Assembly: GCA_013538675.1 (NCBI GenBank)
Contig: JACAFJ010000009.1
Location: 6,640 to 38,639, forward strand
Length of the DNA stretch: 32,000 bases
Reading direction: 5' to 3'
DNA from: Candidatus Nitrosocaldus tengchongensis
Lineage (GTDB): Archaea > Thermoproteota > Nitrososphaeria > Nitrososphaerales > Nitrosocaldaceae
Below, piece after piece: positions 6,537 to 31,200 of the stretch. The first letter of the stretch is position 1, and every line of letters starts with the position of its first letter. The notes under the pieces are model-generated. The model made no database searches. It saw only the letters and a list, made by a program, of their open reading frames with translations, and was not told the DNA's origin. Position numbers and translations under genes: made by a program.

Positions 6537-6827
6537 GTGAACAAGGGTATGGGTAGACTGATCACAAGGGTAAAGATAATGCCTGCTGACGTTGATGTTA
6601 ACCTTGATGCTCTGGTAGAGAAGGTTAAGGATAACATGCCAGATGGTATACAGGTTAAGAGGTATAGCAAAGAACCAATAGCATTTGGGATAAGTGCACT
6701 AATACTCGATATGGTGATGGATGAGGATACTGCTAGTACTGATTCCCTTGAAGAGAGGTTAAGGAGCATAGATGGTGTTGGTGAGGTTGAGGTAGTGAGC
6801 ATGAGTAGAGAGTCAGCTAGGCTATGA
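6537..6827 (+). CDS. ef1b: translation elongation factor aEF-1 beta
   Basis: The pattern VKIMPADVDVNLDALVEKVK..KEPIAFGISALILDMVMDE..LEERLRSIDGVGEVEVVSMSR is the aEF-1beta pattern. The likely start is the ATG at 6549; the ORF opens at GTG 6537. Confidence 0.85.
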   Translation: MNKGMGRLITRVKIMPADVDVNLDALVEKVKDNMPDGIQVKRYSKEPIAFGISALILDMVMDEDTASTDSLEERLRSIDGVGEVEVVSMSRESARL

Positions 6828-15428: not shown

Positions 15429-15509
15429 CGTGTTATATCTGCTCTATACCTATATCTCGCTAGATAGGTATAGATAATTACATCATACAACTAGATTAAA
15501 TCAAATCAA

Positions 15510-16340
15510 TCAAGTACCTAACTCCATACTCATGAACTCAAGTATATTCCTCATCCTCAAACAATCAAGCTCAAGTAATGGGGATTCACATATTATAGTT
15601 ATACCTAACCTTCTTCTTACTATCTCTAACGCTAATGGCTCGAACTGTGGCTCCCCTATCGGTCTATGAACATCAACGTATCTATAGCCTTTCCTTGCAA
15701 GTCCTGTAAAGTGTGCATTTATGTACTCTAACCCAGCATCAAGCAATCTATCTATTATGTGTGCATAGTCTATCCTGCCATTGTTCCTAGCAAATATGTG
15801 TGCAAAGTCCACATATGGTCTAACCCAACCATTCAGATCCTTGTAGAGCCTCAATACCTCATCCAGTGTCCCAAACTGGTTCTTCCTTGCCATGGTCTCA
15901 GCTCCAAGCCTTACATTCCTTATACCTATGCTCCTCATCTCATCCACTATGGACTCGTAACCTGCTCTAACCATTGCATACGCCTCTTCCCTACTCCTCT
16001 TCCCGTAGAATGCAGAGTGTACTGCTACTATATCAGCATGCATAGCCTCTCCCCTCACTACACACTCGAGTATCCTACGCCTAGATCTCCTTATCACATC
16101 TGTATCCTCCGAGCATAGGTTTATGTAGTAGGGTGCATGTATCGATAACCTTATGCCCAACTCCTCTGCTAATCTCCCAAGGTATCTACTCTCCTCCATG
16201 TTAAGGTATATGCTATTAGCGAAGTCAAGTTCTAGAGCGTTGAGCCCAAGCTCGCTAAGCCTCTTCAAACCAGCTTCCAAACCATGACTCCTGCTAGAGA
16301 CTGGGAAGCCTTGGGTCCCTATGTATACCCTCATGTACAT
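15510..16340 (-). CDS. xylose-isomerase-like TIM-barrel protein, endonuclease IV (AP endonuclease 2) family-like
   Basis: 276 aa. Has SIHAPYYINLCS, ADIVAVHSAFYG, RLGAETM, VDFAHIFA, INAHFTG, VDVHRPIGE and IICESP. These correspond to the spaced metal-ligand motifs of Nfo-type enzymes. Confidence 0.6.
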   Translation of the reverse strand: MYMRVYIGTQGFPVSSRSHGLEAGLKRLSELGLNALELDFANSIYLNMEESRYLGRLAEELGIRLSIHAPYYINLCSEDTDVIRRSRRRILECVVRGEAMHADIVAVHSAFYGKRSREEAYAMVRAGYESIVDEMRSIGIRNVRLGAETMARKNQFGTLDEVLRLYKDLNGWVRPYVDFAHIFARNNGRIDYAHIIDRLLDAGLEYINAHFTGLARKGYRYVDVHRPIGEPQFEPLALEIVRRRLGITIICESPLLELDCLRMRNILEFMSMELGT

Positions 16341-16447
16341 AAATAAGTACTCGCTCGCATATTTACGATTCTACCACCATGAAGGCATATTGTGCCTTTC
16401 CACATTCCATAGCAGTAATACCTCCAGAATATAATTAATTAATAACC

Positions 16448-16861
16448 TCACCTCATCCCTCCTATCATACCAGGAGCCTTGGGCATACTCCTGTACTCCT
16501 TCATTATATGTATGCTTGGTTCTGCAGTAACAACAACGTACTCCTTGTTTGCATCATCTCTAGGAGAGAGGGATACCTTCTCTCCAGGCTTTATCCTTGG
16601 TATGAAGTCCTTGTATGTACCATAATCAACCACAACGTTTGTAATATCGTTCCTACCAGTGTTTGTAATGATAACCCTGTATATGTCCATGACGTCTATC
16701 CTATCCTTGAACGCATCAACCTCGAGTGCATAATCCTGGTTAGAGTAGGGTATGAGCATCAAGAATGCTGTTAGCATAGCAGTGCCCATGGCAGCAGCAC
16801 CTACTATTAGGTAGAGCAGCATAACATTATAATCCATAAAGTTAGATTTAACATTTATCAT
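16448..16861 (-). CDS. N-terminally membrane-anchored protein, function unknown (weak CARDB-like beta-sandwich pattern)
   Basis: 137-aa ORF with a TM segment (LLYLIVGAAAMGTAMLTAFLMLI) followed by VIITNTGRNDITNVVVDYG..IKPGEKVSLSP. The start could instead be the internal ATG at 16837. Confidence 0.45.
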   Translation of the reverse strand: MINVKSNFMDYNVMLLYLIVGAAAMGTAMLTAFLMLIPYSNQDYALEVDAFKDRIDVMDIYRVIITNTGRNDITNVVVDYGTYKDFIPRIKPGEKVSLSPRDDANKEYVVVTAEPSIHIMKEYRSMPKAPGMIGGMR

Positions 16862-16937
16862 CTTGGAACAAACATACCCTCATATTCTATCTGACCTAAC
16901 CATTATAGTTATATTTAAGTTAGTTTTAGTATATGTG

Positions 16938-17135
16938 ATGATGAAGAACTACAGTATGCTTGCAGTACTAGCCATAGTAGCTGTAGCAGCAATAGCAGCA
17001 GTTATGCCAAGTGCATATGCCCAGACATGGGGTAGGCCTGACTCTATGATAATTGCAGGGTTACCACTGATAGTTGGTCTAGGCACTGGCATAGTGTACT
17101 TTATAGTACTATCTGCAAGAAGATCTAGGAGGTAA
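16938..17135 (+). CDS. 65-aa membrane peptide: signal-peptide-like N-terminus, one TM helix, RRSRR tail
   Basis: In-frame ATG at 16938 within track ORF 16863..17135 (TTG start). TATA-like TTATATTTAAG at 16908-16918 lies 20-30 nt upstream of 16938. The sequence is MMKNYSMLAVLAIVAVAAIAAVMPSAYA/QTWGRPDSM/IIAGLPLIVGLGTGIVYFIVL/SARRSRR, and a T-rich tract follows the stop. Confidence 0.4.
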   Translation: MMKNYSMLAVLAIVAVAAIAAVMPSAYAQTWGRPDSMIIAGLPLIVGLGTGIVYFIVLSARRSRR

Positions 17136-17341
17136 AGAACTGGCTTATTTATTTATTATATTTCTTATTTTGTTATCCTCTTCCATTATGAGTAGAGATG
17201 GTGAGTTATAAGTATGCATATATCATCTTTTGGTGGTAGTGCTGGTATCAACTATGCTACACTATTCTATATGATGGAATAACAGTAGAATAATAGTAGT
17301 TATATTAAATAACAAAAAGATGGTGGGTATTATTGTTATCT

Positions 17342-17995
17342 TTAATCCCACTTGCTCCACGCAGCGGCCCATCTGTACGTCCATGTATTCAGCTTTGCTC
17401 CCAAGGCTGCCATTGGAACGCTTATAACAGCACTAATACCTGCTGCTAGGGCTACTGGACTGTTGTAGAACTTGCCTACCTGAGGCTCGATTGGTGTTAG
17501 GTATGCTGGTAGTGTTGGTCTTGGGTACTTGAATGCCATCTCTAGAGGATCATGCACTGTTAGCAGGTTTATCATGTTGAAGAGTGGCATTGATAGACCA
17601 ACTAGAGATCCTCCTATGAGTATCGCTGCATGCTTGTTCCTTCTAGTTGCCCAGTATGATAGATCCAATAGCATAGCACTTGGTATCCATACTGGAACTA
17701 TCATGAAGTCGTATGGGTAGCCTAATCCTCCAATCCAGGCCCACTTTGCAACCCAGGTGTAGATGGTCATTATCGTTGCATAGTAAGTTGCTGTGCCAGG
17801 TACTCCTGTGAATAACATGTAGTATATGGCACCAACTACGAGCATGGTTGACTGGCTCAGATTGAAGATCACAAAGGATGTCCACATCCAGTCAGAGTAG
17901 AATATGTAGTCCCCAGCATTGATGGTCAGCAGCGTTGAGTTCACTGCAACTACCACTATGAACAGGTAGTGTATTGTGCGCCTAATCCAGACCAT
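17342..17995 (-). CDS. amoA: ammonia monooxygenase subunit A (archaeal)
   Basis: 217 aa, near-identical over long stretches to archaeal AmoA as I know it (HYLFIVVVAVNSTLLTINAGDYIFY..SQSTMLVVGAIYYMLFTGVPGTATYYATIMTIYTWVAK..WIPSAMLLDLSYWATRRNKHAA..EMAFKYPRPTLP..IEPQVGKFYNSPVAL..ALGAKLNTWTYRW). Confidence 0.98.
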   Translation of the reverse strand: MVWIRRTIHYLFIVVVAVNSTLLTINAGDYIFYSDWMWTSFVIFNLSQSTMLVVGAIYYMLFTGVPGTATYYATIMTIYTWVAKWAWIGGLGYPYDFMIVPVWIPSAMLLDLSYWATRRNKHAAILIGGSLVGLSMPLFNMINLLTVHDPLEMAFKYPRPTLPAYLTPIEPQVGKFYNSPVALAAGISAVISVPMAALGAKLNTWTYRWAAAWSKWD

Positions 17996-18014
17996 TAGAA
18001 TAATGTACTATACC

Positions 18015-18027
18015 CATATATATAAAA
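18015..18027 (-). promoter_or_regulatory. putative amoA TATA box
   Basis: The minus strand reads TTTTATATATAT, ending about 20-25 nt upstream of the amoA ATG (17995). Confidence 0.4.
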
Positions 18028-18057
18028 CTTACTCTAGGTTAATGCTAATAAATTATT

Positions 18058-18082
18058 AGAATAAAAATAAAATTAAGAAATA
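18058..18082 (-). terminator. putative amoX terminator (T-rich tract)
   Basis: The minus strand reads TATTTCTTAATTTTATTTTTATTCT just after the amoX stop. Confidence 0.35.
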
Positions 18083-18091
18083 TTTATAATT

Positions 18092-18352
18092 CTAGGGGAT
18101 GGCTGGCTTCTCCATGGCAACTTTCCAGATGAAGATGAATCCAAAGGCAATTATGACCGTTAGCACAGTCAGCGCATACATCCCAGAACTGAATGGGTAT
18201 GCCCATGAATAGTATGTAAACCCTACCCAGACACCAAATGCTGTTGCTGCCCACGCCATTATTGCCCCAATTATGTACAAACCCTTCATATGCTCTGTTC
18301 TCTTGCCTATCATCCTCTCTATCTCATCCTTGGGCGCCTCTTTCTTTGACAT
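18092..18352 (-). CDS. amoX: AmoX, small two-TM protein conserved between amoA and amoC in ammonia-oxidising archaea
   Basis: 86 aa with two TM helices. Its position between amoA and amoC is the conserved place of amoX. It has its own TATA-like box and T-tract. Confidence 0.8.
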   Translation of the reverse strand: MSKKEAPKDEIERMIGKRTEHMKGLYIIGAIMAWAATAFGVWVGFTYYSWAYPFSSGMYALTVLTVIIAFGFIFIWKVAMEKPAIP

Positions 18353-18374
18353 TAAGAATAATAAAACATATGCA

Positions 18375-18382
18375 TTATTAAA
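18375..18382 (-). promoter_or_regulatory. putative amoX TATA box
   Basis: The minus strand reads TTTAATAA, 23-30 nt upstream of the amoX ATG (18352). Confidence 0.35.
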
Positions 18383-18408
18383 GTTTACTTTTGATCTCTT
18401 GCTAGGTA

Positions 18409-18441
18409 ATAAAAAAAGAAAAGGAGTTGCCCATTAGGGCA
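18409..18441 (-). terminator. putative amoC terminator (hairpin plus T-tract)
   Basis: On the minus strand, downstream of the amoC stop, TGCCC-TAAT-GGGCA is followed by ACTCCTTTTCTTTTTTTAT. Confidence 0.45.
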
Positions 18442-18486
18442 GTTGCAATTTGTTTACCTTACTTGCTATGTTACACGTCGTGCAGT

Positions 18487-19050
18487 TTATGGTATGCTTC
18501 TGCTGTACAGCTTACCCTCTAGTGCAAGCTTGTACATCTCTGCAACGTATGGGTTGCTTGGTGGTGTCTCCATTCCTAGCTCTACCATCCTAACGTAGAG
18601 CCTAACCACATAGGCTAGGGCACCTATGAATGCTACAACAACACCCATGTTGAATGACCAGTGGTTTGGAACTGCGAATACCTCCTCAACGAACCAGAAG
18701 TGCCACATCTCATTTATACCTATTGTGAACATTGTACCTAGGTAGCCTATGATGGTCATCTTTATACCAGTGTTGACACTGTTGTTTGGACCCCTCATCA
18801 GTGGCACCCTTCTGTCATATATCATTATTGCACCCCAGCCTAATGGTAGGGCTACGAAGTGGGAGTATAGCCACCAGTGTGCTGGTGTGAATGCGCTATC
18901 CCTTATACTGGTCTGATGAAGTGAGCCATCTACGAAGTTATCAACCTCAACACTTGCTGCAACTGAACCCATCACTATGACCATTATCAGTATCTTCTTC
19001 AGCCTCTGCATCTCAACTTCTTTTGGTAGTAGTGCTGGCATCTGAGCCAT
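18487..19050 (-). CDS. amoC: ammonia monooxygenase subunit C (archaeal)
   Basis: 187 aa. The pattern DSAFTPAHWWLYSHFVALPLGWG..GPNNSVNTG..INEMWHFWFVEEVFAVPNHWSFN is the archaeal AmoC pattern. Confidence 0.95.
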   Translation of the reverse strand: MAQMPALLPKEVEMQRLKKILIMVIVMGSVAASVEVDNFVDGSLHQTSIRDSAFTPAHWWLYSHFVALPLGWGAIMIYDRRVPLMRGPNNSVNTGIKMTIIGYLGTMFTIGINEMWHFWFVEEVFAVPNHWSFNMGVVVAFIGALAYVVRLYVRMVELGMETPPSNPYVAEMYKLALEGKLYSRSIP

Positions 19051-19080
19051 ACCGCTTCATCTTCTGCTACCAGAGAGCAG

Positions 19081-19088
19081 TATATTTA
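19081..19088 (-). promoter_or_regulatory. putative amoC TATA box
   Basis: The minus strand reads TAAATATA, 31-38 nt upstream of the amoC ATG (19050). Confidence 0.35.
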
Positions 19089-19326
19089 CCTTATGATAGG
19101 AAATATCAAATGAAATCTGTATATATCCTAAAGCTAACAGGCTTTATCTTAATTAAAACATATTAAAAGAGTCCATATCCTGAATTATTCTGATGTCAAT
19201 ATGATGAATAGAAATGATTAACAACGGAATTGAATATAACATAAACATCATTAGGAGAGTAGATTTATTGTTTATAAGTATGATTAGATATTAATCTATA
19301 TATAAATCAAAAGTAGATCACCAATG

Positions 19327-19339
19327 TAAAAATATATAT
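19327..19339 (+). promoter_or_regulatory. putative amoB TATA box
   Basis: AAAAATATATAT, ending about 24 nt upstream of the amoB ATG (19364). Confidence 0.4.
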
Positions 19340-19363
19340 CTGTGTTAGTACAAGATTCTAATA

Positions 19364-19993
19364 ATGAAGGTAACGCATGTAGCATTGCTGACTGCAGTAG
19401 CGGTAGTACTGGTCTTTGGCTCATTTGCGCCCATGATGAAGGATGCGTTTGCACATGGTGTTCAGGCGCAGTTACAGAGTAGGTTCATAAAGATAGAGGA
19501 TGAGACTTTCTCAACATTCAGAGTTATCACGAAGCAGGAGTATGCAAACAGAACAGGGTTGACACTTGAGCAGGTAGATGCCATGGGCTGCGACCCAAGG
19601 AGACAGGATATACTGATAGTTACTGGAAGGCTTGTAAGCCAAGTCAACAAGGATCTTAGGGCATGGATATCCCTCTTCAACGAGTCAACCAATGCAGGTA
19701 ACAGATGGGAGTTCATATCAAGGGAACCTCCAGGTAATGTATTCGATATACCTGCAGGTGGAGAGGTTCCATACAGGCTATGCCTATCAGCACTTGAGCC
19801 TGGAACATATCATTCACATACACAGTTGAATGTAGCCACAGTTGGACCTGGTCTTGGTCCAGGAGCAACAATAGTAGTAGAGGGAGAACCAACGATGAAG
19901 CCAATGTCAGTAGGCAATGTGATATACCAGAGCATACTGATAGCCATAGGCTTAGCAATAACATTCGCAACAAGACCATGGCAGGTTATATAA
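19364..19993 (+). CDS. amoB: ammonia monooxygenase subunit B (archaeal)
   Basis: 209 aa. A signal peptide is followed by HGVQAQLQSRFIKIED, a cupredoxin-like domain and a C-terminal TM helix. It is divergent from amoC. Confidence 0.95.
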   Translation: MKVTHVALLTAVAVVLVFGSFAPMMKDAFAHGVQAQLQSRFIKIEDETFSTFRVITKQEYANRTGLTLEQVDAMGCDPRRQDILIVTGRLVSQVNKDLRAWISLFNESTNAGNRWEFISREPPGNVFDIPAGGEVPYRLCLSALEPGTYHSHTQLNVATVGPGLGPGATIVVEGEPTMKPMSVGNVIYQSILIAIGLAITFATRPWQVI

Positions 19994-20016
19994 CAGCATA
20001 ATACATACCATATACC

Positions 20017-20033
20017 CTCCTTTCTTTTGTTTG
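20017..20033 (+). terminator. putative amoB terminator (T-rich tract)
   Basis: CCTCCTTTCTTTTGTTT begins 24 nt after the amoB stop. Confidence 0.4.
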
Positions 20034-20248
20034 ATCTACAAACAAGCAGTTTATACTAAAGATCTTGCCCGTATCAGATCAATAATTCTTTGTAGTGTGT
20101 TATGTTACTATCTGTCGTATGATCTGGCTATATTGAGAGATTTACAGTATGTATTACCTGTCTATGATACAGCCTATACACATGCTAAGCAAGTTTAAGA
20201 CAATCTAATGAGCATAATATAAAAAAGGGGATGTTACCTGCCTTGATA

Positions 20249-20518
20249 TTACCTTCTCCTCTCCTCTGGCAACAAACCTATACCTTCCCTCTCGTAGTAC
20301 CTCTCCAGCTCCTGTACCCAAGTCTCTCTGGCAGTGCCTCCTATACCCTTGTGCCTTAACCAGTATGCTATAACACTCAGCAGGAATATACCGAACATCA
20401 TTGTACCGAATATGTAGATCATCACATCGTAGAAGAGTGGGTCATATGCTGGGCCTATCTGCAGCACTATGCTCTTTATACCCATAGCCAGCGTTGCAAG
20501 ATCCATTAGTATAATCAT
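20249..20518 (-). CDS. small membrane protein next to amoB; candidate additional AMO subunit (AmoY/AmoZ-type), unverified
   Basis: 89-aa ORF with one strong TM helix (VMIYIFGTMMFGIFLLSVIAYWL) and a charged tail (ETWVQELERYYEREG..EERRR). TATA-like TGTATATATT at 20530-20539 favours the second ATG (20506). A T-tract follows the stop (20221-20232). Confidence 0.5.
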   Translation of the reverse strand: MIILMDLATLAMGIKSIVLQIGPAYDPLFYDVMIYIFGTMMFGIFLLSVIAYWLRHKGIGGTARETWVQELERYYEREGIGLLPEERRR

Positions 20519-20771
20519 CTAACACCATGAATATATACATTTCCGTTTTGCCTTATAAAAAATTTAGTCGCTTTGTGATTCGCTGATATCATTCATCCAT
20601 AGCGTTACAGTATTACTGCTCATTATATCTACATCGTTCGCATAATACAATCATTTCATACAGTATCTACACAAATGTTGTCTGCATGGGCATTTGATGG
20701 TTGTAATACTAGTTACTACGGTATGACTAAGTTGTATAGAATAATAAAAAGTGATGGGAGTTGTATTACAA

Positions 20772-21140
20772 CTATGCGCTCTTCTGTATCTTTGGCTTCC
20801 TTAGTGCCATTGCAAAGAATGCTGCAGATATGCCTCCAAATATGGCACCAAGAGCAGCAACATATATGCCTAGTTCACCGAATGTCTTTGCTACCATTGA
20901 TGTACCAGAGCCATATGCTCCCTCTTGCTGTGCTGTTGTGAGCCTCTTCTTTGCTAGTATGGAGTGCTGTGTGCATGCAAACTCTGGTATGCCAAGCTGC
21001 TTGCACTCCTCCAACTGCTCTGGTGTAGCAGTTATATCACCAACACCCTCACCATACAGCTGTGCCATCGCTACTGAGCTACCTCCTACCCACATTGCAA
21101 TTACTCCAGCCACAACCGCTAGAAGTGCAAACTTATTCAT
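20772..21140 (-). CDS. secreted/membrane-anchored small protein near amoB; candidate additional AMO subunit (AmoY/AmoZ-type), unverified
   Basis: 122 aa with a signal-peptide-like N-terminus ending VAMA/QL, a Cys pair (EECKQLGIPEFAC) and a C-terminal TM helix plus KPKIQK tail. TATA-like GATTATATAC lies 23-32 nt upstream of the ATG. The antisense ORF 20761..21144 was rejected on composition and protein plausibility. Confidence 0.55.
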   Translation of the reverse strand: MNKFALLAVVAGVIAMWVGGSSVAMAQLYGEGVGDITATPEQLEECKQLGIPEFACTQHSILAKKRLTTAQQEGAYGSGTSMVAKTFGELGIYVAALGAIFGGISAAFFAMALRKPKIQKSA

Positions 21141-21238
21141 GTAAGTCTTAATGGGCAGATGATGTATATAATCTTTCTCCCTTTCCTTTTAAATTATACA
21201 GGGCAAAGACTTTAATTTATCACCTGCAGAGTCTATGC

Positions 21239-21682
21239 ATGGCTAGGATACATGCACATAGGAAGGGTAAGTCCCACTCGATCAGACCCATGCAGGTGAA
21301 TGCCCCATGGGTTAACATGAGCAGGGAGGAGATAGTTAACCTTATAGTTAATATGGCAAAGGATGGACTGAAACCCAGCGAGATAGGCTTGAGGCTGAAG
21401 GATGAGTATGGCGTTCCTCTGGTTAGGAAGGTTATAGACAGATCAATAACAGAGGTGCTGGAAGAGCATGGTATAAAGACTCTACCTGAAGATCTAAGCA
21501 ACATGCTTGAGAAGGCAATTAGGCTGCAGAAGCACCTCAACGTGCATAGGAGTGATAGCAATAATATAAGATCTCTAGAGCTTATAGAGGCAAAGATACA
21601 TAGACTAGCAAAGTACTACAAGAGAGAAGGGAAGATACCCCAAGACTGGAGGTACAAGACTGTAATAGCAAGCCTTGAATGA
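21239..21682 (+). CDS. rps15: 30S ribosomal protein uS15 (S15P/S13e)
   Basis: 147 aa. The N-terminus MARIHAHRKGKSHSIRP and the C-terminal S15 helical domain (LEKAIRLQKHL..D..N..SLELIEAKIHRLAKYY) fit uS15. Confidence 0.9.
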   Translation: MARIHAHRKGKSHSIRPMQVNAPWVNMSREEIVNLIVNMAKDGLKPSEIGLRLKDEYGVPLVRKVIDRSITEVLEEHGIKTLPEDLSNMLEKAIRLQKHLNVHRSDSNNIRSLELIEAKIHRLAKYYKREGKIPQDWRYKTVIASLE

Positions 21683-23165
21683 GTATAGGTTAGCTGATAA
21701 CCTTGATATGAGTAGCCCTAATCTTAATCTGAACCTTGAATCATTCCTGCATGAACTCTCTGGCAGGGTACATGATGCTATAGCATCAAGGAAGAGGATA
21801 ATGGTTGTAACACATTCAGATGCTGATGGTCTGGTCTCTGGCAGTATCATTGCCAAGGCAATAATGAGGAAGGGTGGGAGATGCCTTGTTAGAGTTGTGA
21901 GTGATCTTAACCCCAATGTGTTGATGAAGGCTGCTGGAGAGGATCACGATTTCTACATAATCACTGATATGGGTGCTGGTCTAGCAGGGATGATAGATGA
22001 GCATATAGGCAGCAAGGGTAAGGGCAAAGAATGGATTGTTATAGACCATCACCAACTCCCACCAGAAGAGGTCGAGGATGTTAGGGTATGTAATGCCTGG
22101 AAGTTCGGTATAGATGGAGGGGTGGAGGCTTGCGCTGGTACGATGGCATACAAGGTTGCCAATGCGCTAGATGAATCAAACAAGGATCTATCAGCACTCG
22201 CAGTTGTTGCCATGGTTGCAGATAGGCAGGACCAAGGGGAGAGGAAATCACTGCTAGGCTTGAATGCAGAGGTTGCAGATACTGCTAGAGAACTTGGGTT
22301 ACTGAGCATAGATCTTGATCTCATGCTTGTTGGGAGGGAGACTAGAGCGGTGCATGAAGCGCTAGCCTACACATCTTACCCATACATAGATGGGCTAACT
22401 TGGAACGTTGACTCCTGTTATTCACTGCTCAACTCTACAGGGTTGAGACTGAAGGATGATGGTAGATGGCGTACTCTAGCAGAGATGAGTAGTGAGGAGA
22501 AGAGCAAGATAGTTGATGCTATAGCCATCTTCTCTTCCTCATCACCATCATCACCATCCAGTTCTGGCAAGAAGGACGCAAACATGATAGTTGATGAGTT
22601 GATAGGCTATGTATATACACTACTGAGAGAGGATAAGAGGAGCATGCTTAGAGATGCTAGGGAGTTCAGCCTAATGCTCAATGCATGTGCAAGGATAAGG
22701 AGATCTGGAGTTGGGATAGCAATATGCTTGGGTGATAGGAATGCTATGCTTATTGAGGGTGAGATGATAGTGAGTGAGTATAGGAAGACACTTAGAGGTT
22801 ACATAAGTACGATAATGGGTGAGAGATGGAGGGTGATGGATGATGGTACCCTAGCCATAGTTAACGGGGATAACCTAATAGCACAGGATATGCTTGGAGC
22901 AGTCTCATCACTACTTAGTGGGTCTCAAGTATTCCAAGGCAGGATTGTAGTTGTAAAGACTAGGACTGATGATGGGATGTACAAGTTCTCCTGCAGAAAA
23001 GGCTTGAACTGCAGCATCGATATTAACCTTGGCCTACTTATGCGTGAATGCTCAAGTAGATGCAAGGGTGTTGGAGGAGGGCATAGTGCTGCTGCTGGTG
23101 CAAGGATAAGTGCTGATATGCTTGATGAGTTCATAAGATGCATTAAGGAGAGTGTGCAAAGATAA
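21675..23165 (+). CDS. DHH-family phosphoesterase, archaeal RecJ/Cdc45 (GAN)-like
   Basis: Has DHH motifs (VVTHSDADGLVSG, ITDMG, VIDHHQ) and the DHHA1 motif GGGHSAAAGARI. The TTG start at 21675 overlaps the rps15 stop; an alternative ATG lies at 21708. A Ser/Pro insert lies at nt 22533-22565. Confidence 0.8.
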   Translation: MNEYRLADNLDMSSPNLNLNLESFLHELSGRVHDAIASRKRIMVVTHSDADGLVSGSIIAKAIMRKGGRCLVRVVSDLNPNVLMKAAGEDHDFYIITDMGAGLAGMIDEHIGSKGKGKEWIVIDHHQLPPEEVEDVRVCNAWKFGIDGGVEACAGTMAYKVANALDESNKDLSALAVVAMVADRQDQGERKSLLGLNAEVADTARELGLLSIDLDLMLVGRETRAVHEALAYTSYPYIDGLTWNVDSCYSLLNSTGLRLKDDGRWRTLAEMSSEEKSKIVDAIAIFSSSSPSSPSSSGKKDANMIVDELIGYVYTLLREDKRSMLRDAREFSLMLNACARIRRSGVGIAICLGDRNAMLIEGEMIVSEYRKTLRGYISTIMGERWRVMDDGTLAIVNGDNLIAQDMLGAVSSLLSGSQVFQGRIVVVKTRTDDGMYKFSCRKGLNCSIDINLGLLMRECSSRCKGVGGGHSAAAGARISADMLDEFIRCIKESVQR

Positions 23166-23170
23166 GAGGG

Positions 23171-23482
23171 ATGGATAAGGCTAAGGTTAGAGTAACCATA
23201 AGGATAGAGATGGATGAGCAGAGCAAGGCTACCTCTATGCTAGAGTCACTGCTACCAGATAACGTTGATATCCCAGAGGGGCTCTCTGTAGACTTTCATG
23301 TAGATGAGAGGATTCTAGTGTTGGTGTTTGAGGCTTTGCTTGATGTTACTGATGGTGAAGGAAGTAGTAGCAACAGCGCTAGTAGTAGTAGAAGGATGGC
23401 ATCGCTCATACATACAATAGATGAAGTACTGGATCATGTTAATACAATGGCTAGGGTTATGAACGTTGGTATCAATGAATGA
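23171..23482 (+). CDS. Pcc1/CTAG-like small protein (possible KEOPS subunit)
   Basis: 103 aa. The layout (alternating beta-strands VRVTIRIEM, LSVDFHVDERILVLVFEA, then a C-terminal helix ASLIHTIDEVLDHVNTMARVM) resembles Pcc1. It is interrupted by GEGSSSNSASSS. The assignment is tentative. Confidence 0.4.
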   Translation: MDKAKVRVTIRIEMDEQSKATSMLESLLPDNVDIPEGLSVDFHVDERILVLVFEALLDVTDGEGSSSNSASSSRRMASLIHTIDEVLDHVNTMARVMNVGINE

Positions 23483-23493
23483 ATGAATGAATG
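23474..23493 (+). repeat. (AATG)5 tetranucleotide microsatellite spanning the stop codon of the Pcc1-like gene
   Basis: Five perfect AATG units read directly from the sequence, followed by a degenerate AATAATG. Confidence 0.9.
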
Positions 23494-23538
23494 AATAATG
23501 ATATGGTATATTAAAGATCCATTGTGATATGTGTGCGT

Positions 23539-24831
23539 ATGATAGACCCAAAGATATTGAGGGAGCAGCCTAGCATAATAGCAAAGATGCTTGAGAGGAG
23601 GGGTATTACATTCCCACTTGACGAACTTCTGGATATTGATAGAAGGAGAAGGATGCTCATGAAGGAGGTTCAGGAACTTAACCATAGGAGGAATGTAGTT
23701 GCACAGCAGATAGCAGGGAAGAAGAGGCTCAAGCAGGATACAGCAATGGAGGTTGAGGAGATGCAGGTATTGAGTGAGAAGATAGACCTGCTAGATAAAG
23801 AACTCAACATGCTTGAGAAGGATTACAATAGGATGCTCATGATGCTACCCAACCTAGTACATGAGTCTGTACCAGATGGCAAGGGTGAGGAGGATAATGT
23901 TGTAGTTAGGAGATGGGGTGAACCAAAGGCACTCAACAATGCAAGAGGACATGTTGAGTTAGGAGTATCTCTAAACCTTCTTGACCTTGAGAGAGCAGCA
24001 AGGATCTCAGGCTCTAGATTCTACTTCCTCTTGAATGATCTAGTGCTACTAAACCATGCGCTCATACAGTTCGCACTTGAGTTCATGAAGAGTAAGGGCT
24101 TCACATTGGTGCAGACACCATACATGATAAAGCGTGATGCAATGGAAGGAGCAATAATGCTTAGCGACTTTGAGGATGTGATATACAAGGTTGAGGATGA
24201 AGATCTCTACCTCATAGGCACTGCTGAGCATGCAATAGCAGCGATGCATATGGATGAGATACTTGATGGCAATAGATTACCATTACGCTACGTTGGTATA
24301 TCGCCATGCTTCAGGAAGGAGGCTGGTGCACATGGTAAGGATACCAAAGGTATATTCAGGGTTCACCAGTTCGAGAAGGTTGAGCAGTTCGTATTCTGCA
24401 AGCCAGAGCAGTCATGGGATGAGCATGAACTATTGCTTAGAAATGCTGAGGAGTTCTTTCAGGCACTGGAGATACCATACAGGGTAGTGTTATTATGCTC
24501 AGCAGAACTAGGCAAGGTATCGGCAAAGACATACGATATAGAGGCTTGGATGCCAGTACAGAATGCATATAGAGAGGTTGTGTCATGTTCAAACTGCCTT
24601 GACTTCCAAGCAAGGAGGCTAAAGATAAGGTATAGGGATAAGCCCAATGAAGATACTAGATACGTTCATACACTCAACTCAACACTGGTTGCTACTGAAA
24701 GAACGCTAGTTGCTATAATGGAGAATAACCAGACAGAGGATGGAAAGAGAATAATAGTACCAAAGGCATTAAGACACTATATGAATGGTATTGAGAGCAT
24801 ACCATCATCATTATTATTATCATCGCCATAA
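23539..24831 (+). CDS. serS: seryl-tRNA synthetase
   Basis: N-terminal coiled-coil arm (MIDPKILREQPSII..RRRRMLMKEVQELNHRRN) and class II core (GSRFYFL, TAEHAIAAMH, FRKEAGAHGKDTKGIFRVHQFEKVEQF, NSTLVATERTLVAIMENNQ). The ATG at 23539 is preferred over the GTG at 23524. Confidence 0.95.
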   Translation: MIDPKILREQPSIIAKMLERRGITFPLDELLDIDRRRRMLMKEVQELNHRRNVVAQQIAGKKRLKQDTAMEVEEMQVLSEKIDLLDKELNMLEKDYNRMLMMLPNLVHESVPDGKGEEDNVVVRRWGEPKALNNARGHVELGVSLNLLDLERAARISGSRFYFLLNDLVLLNHALIQFALEFMKSKGFTLVQTPYMIKRDAMEGAIMLSDFEDVIYKVEDEDLYLIGTAEHAIAAMHMDEILDGNRLPLRYVGISPCFRKEAGAHGKDTKGIFRVHQFEKVEQFVFCKPEQSWDEHELLLRNAEEFFQALEIPYRVVLLCSAELGKVSAKTYDIEAWMPVQNAYREVVSCSNCLDFQARRLKIRYRDKPNEDTRYVHTLNSTLVATERTLVAIMENNQTEDGKRIIVPKALRHYMNGIESIPSSLLLSSP

Positions 24832-29155: not shown

Positions 29156-29665
29156 TTACCTACTTCTCAGTTCAAGCCTTATGCTTAAACCATCCTCTAT
29201 AGCAACCTTGGCAGGATCATTGCCTATGTTGATGAACTCCTGCTGCCCTTTGCCCTTAACCCATATACTCATATCATAACCCTCTGTATTCAAATTCCAC
29301 AACCTTAACAGATCAAGCAGTGTGAACCTTATTGGTCTTGAGTAGATCACATATACATTGCCATCCTCTCTAGTATGCAATGGCCTTGTGCAGTTCTCAT
29401 CCCTCCCAATGTCTGCTGGTACCTCTACTGGCCTATCATCTATGGTAACGCTAAGCATAGCATGTAACTTGAATGATAGATCCTCGCTAGTTATGCATTG
29501 CTGTAGTGGTGGTTTGCCAGATATGAACTGGCTTATGATGAATGCTACACCAGTACCTACACCTAGGAGTATGACTGGCATTATCAACTGCCATTTAGTT
29601 ATCCTCTTCTTATCCTCACCTGGTGCCTTTCTAGGCTTTACCATACAAGAGTAAGAGAAGAGCAT
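29156..29665 (-). CDS. membrane-anchored conserved hypothetical protein
   Basis: 169-aa ORF with an N-terminal TM segment (LIMPVILLGVGTGVAFIISQFI). The domain LHAMLSVTIDDRPVEVPADIGRDENCTRPLHTREDGNVYVIYS resembles a widespread uncharacterised family (..HxH..I..nG..v.iPa.iGi...C..PLHTHD..G.ihve). The start may be the ATG at 29644. Confidence 0.5.
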   Translation of the reverse strand: MLFSYSCMVKPRKAPGEDKKRITKWQLIMPVILLGVGTGVAFIISQFISGKPPLQQCITSEDLSFKLHAMLSVTIDDRPVEVPADIGRDENCTRPLHTREDGNVYVIYSRPIRFTLLDLLRLWNLNTEGYDMSIWVKGKGQQEFINIGNDPAKVAIEDGLSIRLELRSR

Positions 29666-29841: not shown

Positions 29842-31200
29842 ATGGACGTGTATAACATACACAATTACAAGAGGATAACAGAGTACTGGCTTAAGCGTAT
29901 AAAGGAGGCAGAAGAGGAGAGGAAGAGGGAGGAGGAGGAGGAGAAGGAAGGGGAGGAGAGGGGGAAGCAGAAAAGGGAAAGGAAAAGGAAGGATATAGAT
30001 ATGATTATGTATGATCTTGCTTGTAGGTTCATAACTGCATTAAGGTTAGCAGGTGTAGGAGAAGGCAAGGTTAAGGACTATGCTCAGTTCACATATAGGA
30101 TAATGGTGGAGATAATGCATGAAGTAGGGATACATAAAGAGATAGCAGAACTAACAAGGGAGGATATAGATAGGATAGCAGGTGTAATAGTCAAAAAGAA
30201 GGAGGAGGGTCGTTGGAGTCTCTCTACCATAGCAATAGCATTACGAACATTGAAGAGGTTAGTCCATTATGCTAAGCATAAAGAGATAGCAGAAGGAGAG
30301 GGTAACTACTGCAAGGAGGTAGAGCATATACACCCAGATAGGTACAAGAGCAAGGCATTGAAAGAGGATAAGGTAAGAGCAACTGATCTTCTTACAAGAG
30401 AGGAGTTCCTCAGAATGGTAGAGGCAGTAGCAAAGGTAAGTAGATACCCAGCAAGGGATAGAGCATTACTATACGTTATGTATGAGTTTGCTGCTAGACC
30501 TAGTGAGTTATTAAACATGAAGGTAGGTAATCTTGTATTCCATGAAGGATATGCAGAGATAACAACAGAAGGGAAGACTGGTGTTAAGACCCTAACTTTG
30601 GTACTCTCTTACAATGCATTAAGGGAATGGTATGAGCAACACCCATTAAAGGAAGAACCCAATGCGTATTTATGGTATAGTAAGCAGAAGAATAAGCAAG
30701 GTGAGTATAGAGTATCATACGATAGGCTAAGAATATTCTTGAAGAGATTAGCAGAAGTAGCAGGGATAAGGAAGAGGGTATGGCTATATCTGATAAGGCA
30801 TACAGCATTAACGCATGTAGAAAAGGAGTATGGTTCCTCCATTACTGAAATGTATGGGAACTGGAGGAAGGGTTCTCCTATAAGGAATAGGTATATACAC
30901 TTAGCAAATTCAGATCAGAGGGAAGCAGTACTGAAGAGGTATGGGTTGTTGAAGGAAGGAGATAATAGTAGTAATAGTAATAGCATTATTGAACCAAAGC
31001 GTTGCTATCGTTGCAATACCCTTAACGAACCTAATGCTAGGATATGCAAGCATTGTGGTCTCGTTATAGATCCTAGATATGCTATGCAGATCCATAGCGA
31101 GAGAGAGGGAAAGATAAAGGAGTTAGAAGAGAGACTAGCAAGGGTAACAGCAATAGTAGAAGAACTGCTTAGGAGGCAAGAGAGGGGAGATCAGCATTAG
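29842..31200 (+). CDS. tyrosine recombinase / integrase (intact, tRNA-adjacent) with C-terminal zinc ribbon
   Basis: 452 aa. Has an N-terminal E/K-rich tract, a SAM-like core-binding region and a catalytic domain with ARPSEL (Arg I), EGKTGVKT (Lys), YLIRHTALTH (Arg II-His), GNWRKGS and NRYIHL (Tyr). These are followed by CYRCN..x..CKHCG and a coiled-coil tail. It starts 13 bp after the tRNA-Ser CCA. Confidence 0.9.
   Translation: MDVYNIHNYKRITEYWLKRIKEAEEERKREEEEEKEGEERGKQKRERKRKDIDMIMYDLACRFITALRLAGVGEGKVKDYAQFTYRIMVEIMHEVGIHKEIAELTREDIDRIAGVIVKKKEEGRWSLSTIAIALRTLKRLVHYAKHKEIAEGEGNYCKEVEHIHPDRYKSKALKEDKVRATDLLTREEFLRMVEAVAKVSRYPARDRALLYVMYEFAARPSELLNMKVGNLVFHEGYAEITTEGKTGVKTLTLVLSYNALREWYEQHPLKEEPNAYLWYSKQKNKQGEYRVSYDRLRIFLKRLAEVAGIRKRVWLYLIRHTALTHVEKEYGSSITEMYGNWRKGSPIRNRYIHLANSDQREAVLKRYGLLKEGDNSSNSNSIIEPKRCYRCNTLNEPNARICKHCGLVIDPRYAMQIHSEREGKIKELEERLARVTAIVEELLRRQERGDQH

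Follow-up and report, generated by a model that had tools for sequence, protein, structure and literature searches.

The contig JACAFJ010000009.1 of Candidatus Nitrosocaldus tengchongensis (NCBI GenBank assembly GCA_013538675.1) carries, within the 32,000-nucleotide stretch analysed here (positions 6,640 to 38,639, hereafter the window), a gene cluster for the archaeal ammonia monooxygenase (AMO) together with four small open reading frames (ORFs), labelled S1 to S4 (Table 1). A first-pass annotation, made from the sequence alone, had recognised the AMO locus and put forward the four small ORFs, which it could not place in any family, as candidate extra AMO subunits. The region is very probably the canonical, fully syntenic Nitrosocaldus amo cluster in the order amoA-X-C-B-Y-Z, in which S3 and S4 correspond to AmoY and AmoZ, while S1 and S2 are genuine genes that most likely do not encode stoichiometric subunits. 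The amoAXCBYZ cluster, including two of the four small ORFs, is already known.

AmoY is defined in the literature as the product of NVIE_004540, NCAV_0488 and Nmar_1506 (Hodgskiss et al. 2023, PMC10030591), and S3 is identified as its counterpart by homology and gene order. The ORF clusters at 90% identity with UniRef A0A2K5APV6/SPC33681.1, and the published proteome table equates UniProt A0A2K5APV6 with NCAV_0488, a protein of 85 amino acids (aa) and 9.92 kDa, the NVIE AmoY having a mass of 9.6 kDa (PMC10030591). Read from its second ATG, S3 encodes 85 aa with a computed mass of 9.89 kDa (89 aa from position 20518), and a hydropathy scan places one hydrophobic segment at residues 28-46. The true start is likely to be this second ATG, at 20506, judging from orthologue annotations and distant homologues. 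S3 thus shares with NCAV_0488 its length, mass, single transmembrane (TM) helix with charged tail and position between amoB and amoZ; there is no biological difference from the published AmoY, and only the annotated start varies, 85 versus 89 aa. Homologues number 155 across the ammonia-oxidising archaea (AOA) in a large protein collection and occupy the expected position in 21 other loci.

AmoZ, defined as NVIE_004550, NCAV_0486 and Nmar_1507 (PMC10030591), is matched by S4 in the same manner. At the NCAV_0486 position, LT981265.1 (locus L037) has a gene of 130 aa to which S4 is 94% identical (116/124, E 1e-83); in the proteome table NCAV_0486 is A0A2K5APZ8, likewise with 130 aa (PMC10030591). 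Phmmer matches at E < 1e-10 are found in 16 further loci. In the S4 sequence a signal-peptide-like N-terminus is followed by Cys46 and Cys56 in a putatively helical segment, by a Gly-rich linker, by a hydrophobic stretch (residues 94-112) and by a basic tail; the gene lies directly upstream of amoY on the minus strand, as published. It resembles NCAV_0486 in its signal-peptide-like start, the Cys pair of the predicted soluble head, the probable C-terminal TM helix and the place upstream of amoY; the difference in length (122 versus 130 aa) comes from an indel of 2 residues and from the choice of annotated start. A 44-aa ORF, NCAV_0487, that lies between amoZ and amoY in N. cavascurensis (L037 5807-5941) is not conserved in the window and is likely to be spurious.

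The gene order adds to these matches. In Table S16 of the published analysis both N. cavascurensis and N. islandicus are entered as 'fully syntenic', their amoA, X, C, B, Y and Z genes bearing consecutive tags (PMC10030591), and the order in the window is this published Nitrosocaldus order, which loci L036 and L037 also share for amoB-amoY-amoZ. The mapping of NCAV locus tags is anchored by amoA as NCAV_0492, amoB as NCAV_0489 and a 591-aa CPA2 transporter as NCAV_0498; the window's amoX belongs to the same 90% cluster as A0A2K5APX5, which is NCAV_0491, and its amoB to that of A0A2I7UGI0, which is NCAV_0489. The first-pass annotation had guessed that the two ORFs beyond amoB are AmoY and AmoZ, and near-identity to the N. 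cavascurensis proteins and the exact published synteny bear it out; compared with the AmoY and AmoZ sequences, these two ORFs match and S1 and S2 resemble neither. Being AmoY and AmoZ, S3 and S4 are known subunits and not new candidates.

The presence of AmoY and AmoZ in the AMO complex was established by blue-native polyacrylamide gel electrophoresis (BN-PAGE) and cross-linking of orthologues, NCAV_0488 being abundant, with an intensity-based absolute quantification (iBAQ) value of 8.8e9, and co-migrating with AMO (PMC10030591). A cryo-electron microscopy (cryo-EM) study of the N. maritimus AMO describes eight chains per protomer, among which AmoF (AmoY) and AmoG (AmoZ) form a clamp-like heterodimer between protomers (preprint 10.64898/2026.08.31.748207; September 2026). 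Following this literature on orthologues, the two single-pass subunits of Nitrosocaldus would pair into a clamp that bridges neighbouring AMO protomers, their charged tails would keep the cytoplasmic face together, and the disulfide-bonded helical head of AmoZ, which is taken from a published model of the orthologue (PMC10030591), is predicted to touch the cupredoxin domain of AmoB on the outside. Sequence searches of the PDB with AmoY, AmoZ and the S1 profile retrieved no relevant chain, in a searched set evidently without 9XJ2, the archaeal AMO entry that the preprint cites. An AMO cluster with amoX, amoY and amoZ has been textbook matter for the genus since 2023, and its identification here adds nothing new; its value is that of a clean positive control, AmoY and AmoZ having been recognised from sequence features alone.

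An ORF reading of the window places all eight ORFs exactly where the first-pass annotation had put them, with amoA, amoX and amoC head-to-tail on the minus strand and amoB diverging from amoC over an AT-rich spacer. The features it had described for the small ORFs can be read in the translations: the N-terminal anchor and beta domain of S1; in S2, the signal peptide, some 9 exposed residues, the TM helix and the tail RRSRR; the single TM helix and charged tail of S3; the Cys pair and C-terminal TM helix of S4. A hydropathy scan agrees. Pfam recognises amoA, amoB and amoC; Pfam and NCBIfam scans assign no family to amoX or to the four small ORFs, which yield sub-threshold matches only. The amoA product shares 99% identity with its counterpart in a Candidatus Nitrosocaldus metagenome-assembled genome (MAG) and 98% with that of N. 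schleperae, each protein of the region has a letter-identical copy in the Nitrosocaldus MAGs at NCBI, and the DNA of the region is 86-91% identical to N. cavascurensis. An Rfam scan of 15500-22000 gave no match and no tRNA was found within the window.

Table 1. Features of the window, and S2-like micro-ORFs of other loci (last row).
Feature	Position	Strand	Description
S1	16448-16861	-	membrane-anchored, Ig-like beta-sandwich (predicted); orthologue NCAV_0494
S1/S2 divergent spacer	16862-16937	.	76 bp, 29% GC
S2	16938-17135	+	65-aa pre-protein, convergent with amoA; orthologue NCAV_0493
amoA	17342-17995	-	217 aa; PF12942, E 2e-107
amoX	18092-18352	-	86 aa, 2 TM helices
amoC	18487-19050	-	187 aa; PF04896, E 7e-14
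amoC/amoB divergent promoter spacer	19051-19363	.	313 bp, AT-rich, 26% GC
amoB	19364-19993	+	209 aa; PF04744
amoY (S3; 'AmoF' in the 2026 cryo-EM preprint)	20249-20518	-	one TM helix, charged cytoplasmic tail
amoZ (S4; 'AmoG' in the preprint)	20772-21140	-	122 aa; signal peptide, Cys pair, C-terminal TM helix
AmoE-position homologue	29156-29665	-	orthologue NCAV_0475
S2-like micro-ORFs	L031 17765-17863; L020 18435-18536; L021 17966-18067; L030 ~19190-19296	all +	33-35 aa

A run of at least 8 nt consisting only of A and T precedes, by 15-45 nt, the ATG of S2, AmoY, AmoZ, amoA, amoX, amoC and amoB, such runs preceding both of the divergent genes amoC and amoB; the background is 6% of random 30-nt windows. 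T-tracts follow S2, AmoY, AmoZ, amoA, amoB and amoX. The spacer between S1 and S2 contains a single quasi-palindromic TATA-like element (GTTATATTTAAG / CTTAAATATAAC), which precedes the S2 ATG by approximately 25 nt and the ATG at 16861 by approximately 50 nt. The true start of S1 is likely to lie further in, at 16822 (giving 124 aa), again to judge from orthologue annotations and distant homologues. The first-pass annotation had credited each small ORF with its own TATA-like box and a T-tract after the stop. Both hold for S2, AmoY and AmoZ; S1 is the exception, its sole TATA-like element being the one shared with S2, and it is not among the ORFs followed by a T-tract. Every gene of the amo cluster is probably served by its own archaeal TATA-like promoter.

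The S2 pre-protein begins with a signal peptide (…PSAYA|Q); after 9 linker residues come a conserved TM helix (LPLIVGLGTGIVYFIVLS) and, at the end, the tail ARRSRR. In the family alignment the signal peptide, which ends in PSAYAQ, and the short linker are variable, and the core (I/V)PL(I/M)VGLGxGxxYFxxISARRSRR is strongly conserved. Divergent pairs of Nitrosocaldus orthologues have ratios of nonsynonymous to synonymous polymorphism (pN/pS) of 0.09-0.28, and this purifying selection together with the conserved matches to a hidden Markov model (HMM) identifies S2 as a real gene. The HMM finds S2 directly downstream of amoA, in convergent orientation, in 15 of the 29 amoA loci, namely all those of Nitrosocaldus type, Nitrosothermus, a Nitrosomirales MAG and L014-L017; the gene also stands beside amoA in four additional contigs, L120-L123. 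Five Nitrososphaeraceae-labelled loci show no S2-like ORF up to 10 kb from amoA, and none stands beside the amoZ-amoY pair of L034.

In Nitrosopumilaceae the S2 core occurs as a 33-aa ORF without signal peptide (for example MPSEEIAVFIPLIVGLAPGLVYWLAITAMKSKK, or the form beginning MASAVDGWPV…), found in 12 loci at 4-9 kb downstream of amoA, just past tRNA-Ala(TGC). A conserved element AAGATGGATTTAAATA, resembling a B recognition element and TATA box, precedes its ATG by approximately 25-30 nt and a T-tract follows its stop; this spacing would make the transcript leaderless or short-leadered. The form is present on hundreds of marine contigs, where it is annotated as hypothetical only (e.g. NMSP_0267), and all S2 members found so far belong to AOA. 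In four of the Nitrosopumilaceae loci (L020, L021, L030 and L031) the micro-ORFs are mostly missed by gene callers. S2 may accordingly be viewed as the signal-peptide-bearing version of a single-helix micro-protein of approximately 35 aa that is known in several AOA lineages. The signal-peptide-less form corresponds to the predicted mature part of S2, which supports cleavage and a topology with the N-terminus outside and the basic C-terminus inside.

Very small single-helix subunits of membrane complexes form a class of proteins of roughly 30-40 aa, and mature S2 (QTWGRPDSM…ARRSRR, approximately 37 aa, with its Gly-rich TM helix and basic cytoplasmic tail) is like them; its GLGxG helix probably packs against some larger membrane complex. 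S2 also bears a superficial likeness to C-terminal sorting anchors such as that of the PEFG-CTERM protein described below, but has no PEFG motif and no cargo domain. Comparison by hhalign gives probabilities of 0% with AmoY and 11% with AmoZ, where the signal peptides alone are aligned. As a conserved micro-protein family that tracks amoA over AOA orders, S2 would be a cheap and specific target when archaeal AMO preparations and cryo-EM maps are examined.

S1 has orthologues of 38-54% identity flanking S2 and amoA in L008, Nitrosothermus and Nitrosomirales; genes of 121-123 aa are called at the S1 position in L120-L123, and S1 orthologues adjoin amoA in Nitrosocaldus too. The conserved core begins at ATG 16822 and ends in a conserved tail, …PKAPGMIGGMR. 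AlphaFold2 predicts an N-terminal helix followed by a 7-strand beta sandwich, with a mean predicted local distance difference test (pLDDT) score of 78.5 and values above 90 for the domain. Foldseek searches of the PDB return weak immunoglobulin (Ig)-like matches, the best at E 5e-3 (TRAP-beta, archaeal pilins and the CARDB structure 3idu). An exhaustive profile search retrieves 184 proteins, of which approximately 70 are small full-length homologues and the remainder include giant repeat proteins of DUF11/CARDB type with more than 1000 aa. The named family members come from Nitrososphaeraceae and marine Thermoproteota, some labelled 'FlaF' by JGI (Joint Genome Institute). None of 27 family members scanned against Pfam and NCBIfam reaches threshold, DUF7507 being matched below it. 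The tail is invariant in the form R-x-x-(P)-K-x-PGM(I/M)G, containing MxxxM, and the family alignment contains no conserved His or Cys.

S1 is by these matches to be taken as a real gene of a broad AOA family. Its product would be anchored by the N-terminal helix and display one Ig-like beta-sandwich in the pseudo-periplasm. In having a beta sandwich behind an N-terminal membrane helix it is like CARDB, DUF11 and DUF7507 surface domains and FlaF/FlaG-type proteins, and it differs in lying outside an archaellum locus and in its distinctive C-terminal PGMxG tail. The most likely reading is that S1 is an Ig-like protein of the cell envelope with no relation to AMO. Marine homologues were located in metagenomes with a profile of the marine subgroup, the diverse S1 alignment being too variable, and they neighbour the genes for methionyl-tRNA synthetase (MetRS) and SAICAR synthase; the 80 marine loci (501 kb) centred on them contain no amo gene and no S2-like ORF. 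Nitrosocaldus also has a second S1-like gene, P0105 (L038/L039 6001-6363, 120 aa, 66-69% identical). It lies near PadR, YHS/TRASH and SIMPL genes, is without the PGMIGGM tail and ends in …AKMVKVH.

The published proteome gives a further indication. In the N. cavascurensis BN-PAGE table the AMO subunits have iBAQ values of 4-9e9 and other proteins are recorded down to approximately 1e4, and the S1 orthologue NCAV_0494 (A0A2K5AQ02) is absent from it, the listing passing from A0A2K5AQ01 to A0A2K5AQ07. This absence is informative because several ordinary tryptic peptides are expected from S1 (e.g. NDITNVVVDYGTYK). The S1 family is also not in the list of neighbour families conserved in all AOA (PMC10030591). 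With marine homologues away from amo genes, a paralogue elsewhere and its absence from the proteome, S1 is not supported as one of the candidate extra AMO subunits of the first-pass annotation; the more cautious description it had also offered, uncharacterised membrane proteins of the AMO neighbourhood, fits both S1 and S2.

How much the shared neighbourhood can say about function is shown by the genes beyond amoZ. A block encoding ribosomal protein S15, a DHH-DHHA1 phosphoesterase, a Pcc1-like protein and seryl-tRNA synthetase (SerRS) occupies 21239-24831 of the window and has equivalents in L001, L020, L031, L036 and L120; next to amoZ it spans Nitrosocaldales to Nitrosopumilaceae. S15, DHH phosphoesterase and SerRS are thus equally conserved beside amoZ over the AOA orders, and since these unrelated genes are as closely linked, a neighbour kept in this region need not be a functional partner. 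That S1 and S2 stand beside amoA in the deep-branching AOA is best explained by an inherited gene order. S1 adjoins amo genes in these lineages only, its family as a whole being spread over Nitrosocaldales, Nitrososphaeraceae and marine AOA; S2 occurs in Nitrosocaldales, Nitrosothermus, Nitrosomirales, other deep lineages and Nitrosopumilaceae. The criterion used for subunits in the literature is presence in all AOA and exclusivity to AOA (Hodgskiss et al., PMC10030591).

The amo cluster itself is not invariant. In one group of Nitrosocaldus-like MAGs (L005, L006, L007 and L123) it is rearranged: no amoC is found between amoX and amoB, S15 separates amoB from amoZ, and amoZ and amoY are inverted. 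Four loci labelled Nitrososphaera or Nitrososphaeraceae (L009-L012) carry amoA-amoX … amoB-amoY-amoZ-S15-DHH within 6 kb; the amo genes of Nitrososphaeraceae have been described as scattered (PMC10030591).

The Nitrosopumilus-type loci L031-33 have two genes in the interval from amoB to amoY; from position and description we infer these two to be Nmar_1504 and Nmar_1505/NmAmoE, the preprint text not naming Nmar_1505. The protein at the NmAmoE position has been called marine-specific (10.64898/2026.08.31.748207). A homologue of this 190-aa AmoE-position family, overlooked by the first-pass annotation, is encoded in the window (Table 1), with 29% identity over 146 aa in BLASTP (E 2e-20), both Cys conserved and a phmmer match at E 1.5e-14. 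On the strength of these matches the family is not restricted to marine AOA. The orthologue NCAV_0475 (169 aa), beside icd (NCAV_0476), does not co-migrate with AMO: its iBAQ of 5e7 in the BN-PAGE proteome is approximately 100-fold under that of the AMO subunits and it peaks in the lowest-mass band, so that it does not behave as a stoichiometric subunit in N. cavascurensis. A homologue in Nitrosocaldus whose orthologue behaves in this way bears on the generality of the eight-subunit architecture. Beside the homologue the window holds a 452-aa ORF (29842-31200, plus strand) with a highly charged N-terminus and motifs that, read from the sequence, are like those of a tyrosine recombinase/integrase (…LIRHTALTH…).

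It could be supposed that S2 is a further AMO-associated TM micro-subunit or assembly factor that stood ancestrally beside amoA and was overlooked through its size and hydrophobicity. That it directly follows amoA in Nitrosocaldales, Nitrosothermus, Nitrosomirales and three further lineages, and is still found on the same side of amoA in the 12 Nitrosopumilaceae loci, speaks for this, as do the strong purifying selection, the strong TATA element, the restriction of members found so far to AOA and an architecture of single TM helix and basic tail that resembles AmoY and AmoZ. Such short ORFs are moreover easily missed by gene callers and by trypsin proteomics. Against it stand the equally conserved synteny of the unrelated S15 and DHH genes and the lack of the gene near amoA in the five Nitrososphaeraceae-labelled loci. 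The preprint assigns the 51 TM helices per trimer of N. maritimus AMO to AmoA-G, although Nitrosopumilaceae carry the 33-aa homologue, and describes AmoH, its one unidentified chain, as loop-rich and cytoplasmic (10.64898/2026.08.31.748207). An identity of S1 or S2 with AmoH was considered and rejected, as charge distribution puts the S1 domain outside and leaves S2 a cytoplasmic tail of approximately 6 residues. It is unlikely that S2 is such a subunit or factor; for association with AMO in any form the chances are low, and for an ancestrally amo-linked TM component or assembly factor of archaeal AMO in general they are, if anything, a shade lower.

Several points nonetheless weigh against reading the region as a known cluster flanked by two bystanders. 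The roles given to AmoY and AmoZ come from the orthologues of other species. S2 is linked at least loosely to amoA wherever it is found, either next to it or 4-9 kb downstream. The published neighbour analysis seemingly passed S2 over, possibly for the reason that short ORFs are often uncalled. The S2 orthologue NCAV_0493 is absent from the N. cavascurensis BN-PAGE table, but this absence is uninformative because trypsin is expected to yield only QTWGR and one 28-residue hydrophobic peptide. Finally, a hydropathy scan gives the 86-aa Nitrosocaldus AmoX two hydrophobic segments, while AmoX of the Nitrosopumilus-type locus L031 (13009-13371) has 120 aa and 3 TM helices, the extra C-terminal one having been likened to bacterial AmoD (10.64898/2026.08.31.748207); with 2 versus 3 TM helices in AmoX, the Nitrosocaldus complex could have room for an extra helix such as that of S2. 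That S2 replaces the missing third AmoX helix by homology was rejected, as its inferred orientation is opposite and Nitrosopumilaceae have both.

For S1, a lineage-specific periplasmic accessory of AMO may be imagined, either a functional analogue of NmAmoE, or of the Nmar_1504 beta-barrel, sitting on the AmoB cupredoxin domain or a copper delivery factor acting through its Met-rich tail. S1 does share with NmAmoE its gross architecture (a single TM helix with a beta-rich domain outside the cytoplasm) and a location in the amo cluster, adjoining amoA and S2 in Nitrosocaldales, Nitrosomirales and L120-123; its invariant PGM(I/M)G tail with MxxxM also speaks for such a role. There is however no detectable homology to NmAmoE or Nmar_1504, hhalign giving probabilities of 0.5% with the AmoE-position family and 0.3% with the Nmar_1504-like protein, and the homologue of the AmoE-position gene in the window is a separate ORF and not S1. 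The missing A0A2K5AQ02 despite ordinary tryptic peptides, the marine homologues amid housekeeping genes, the paralogue elsewhere and the lack of conserved His or Cys further count against it. Any association of S1 with AMO is improbable, and this accessory role in particular is very much so. Finally, that S1 or S2 might be chance ORFs in AT-rich intergenic DNA would agree with their shortness, their lack of a Pfam or NCBIfam family and their non-detection in the published proteome; yet the pN/pS of S2 lies well below 1, S1 folds confidently in AlphaFold2, and both families are kept over order-level lineages at 30-55% identity with conserved motifs, in contrast to NCAV_0487, whose lack of conservation in the window exemplifies a spurious ORF. 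Conservation refutes this explanation, whose probability is practically nil. The canonical amo cluster with two genuine, most likely non-stoichiometric neighbours is preferred over each of these.

One gene outside the cluster was considered for a relation to S1. NVIE_013530 encodes a 271-aa AOA-specific protein co-migrating with AMO in N. viennensis (PMC10030591), and the possibility that it contains the S1 domain was rejected, as the Nitrosocaldus gene at the same position beside rpoH has a PEFG-type anchor and no match to the S1 HMM. This positional match (L038 10565-11464, minus strand) encodes a secreted protein of 299 aa ending in …VPEFG, a TM helix and SRRQ, an end that was read by eye as a PEFG-CTERM-type thaumarchaeal sorting signal.

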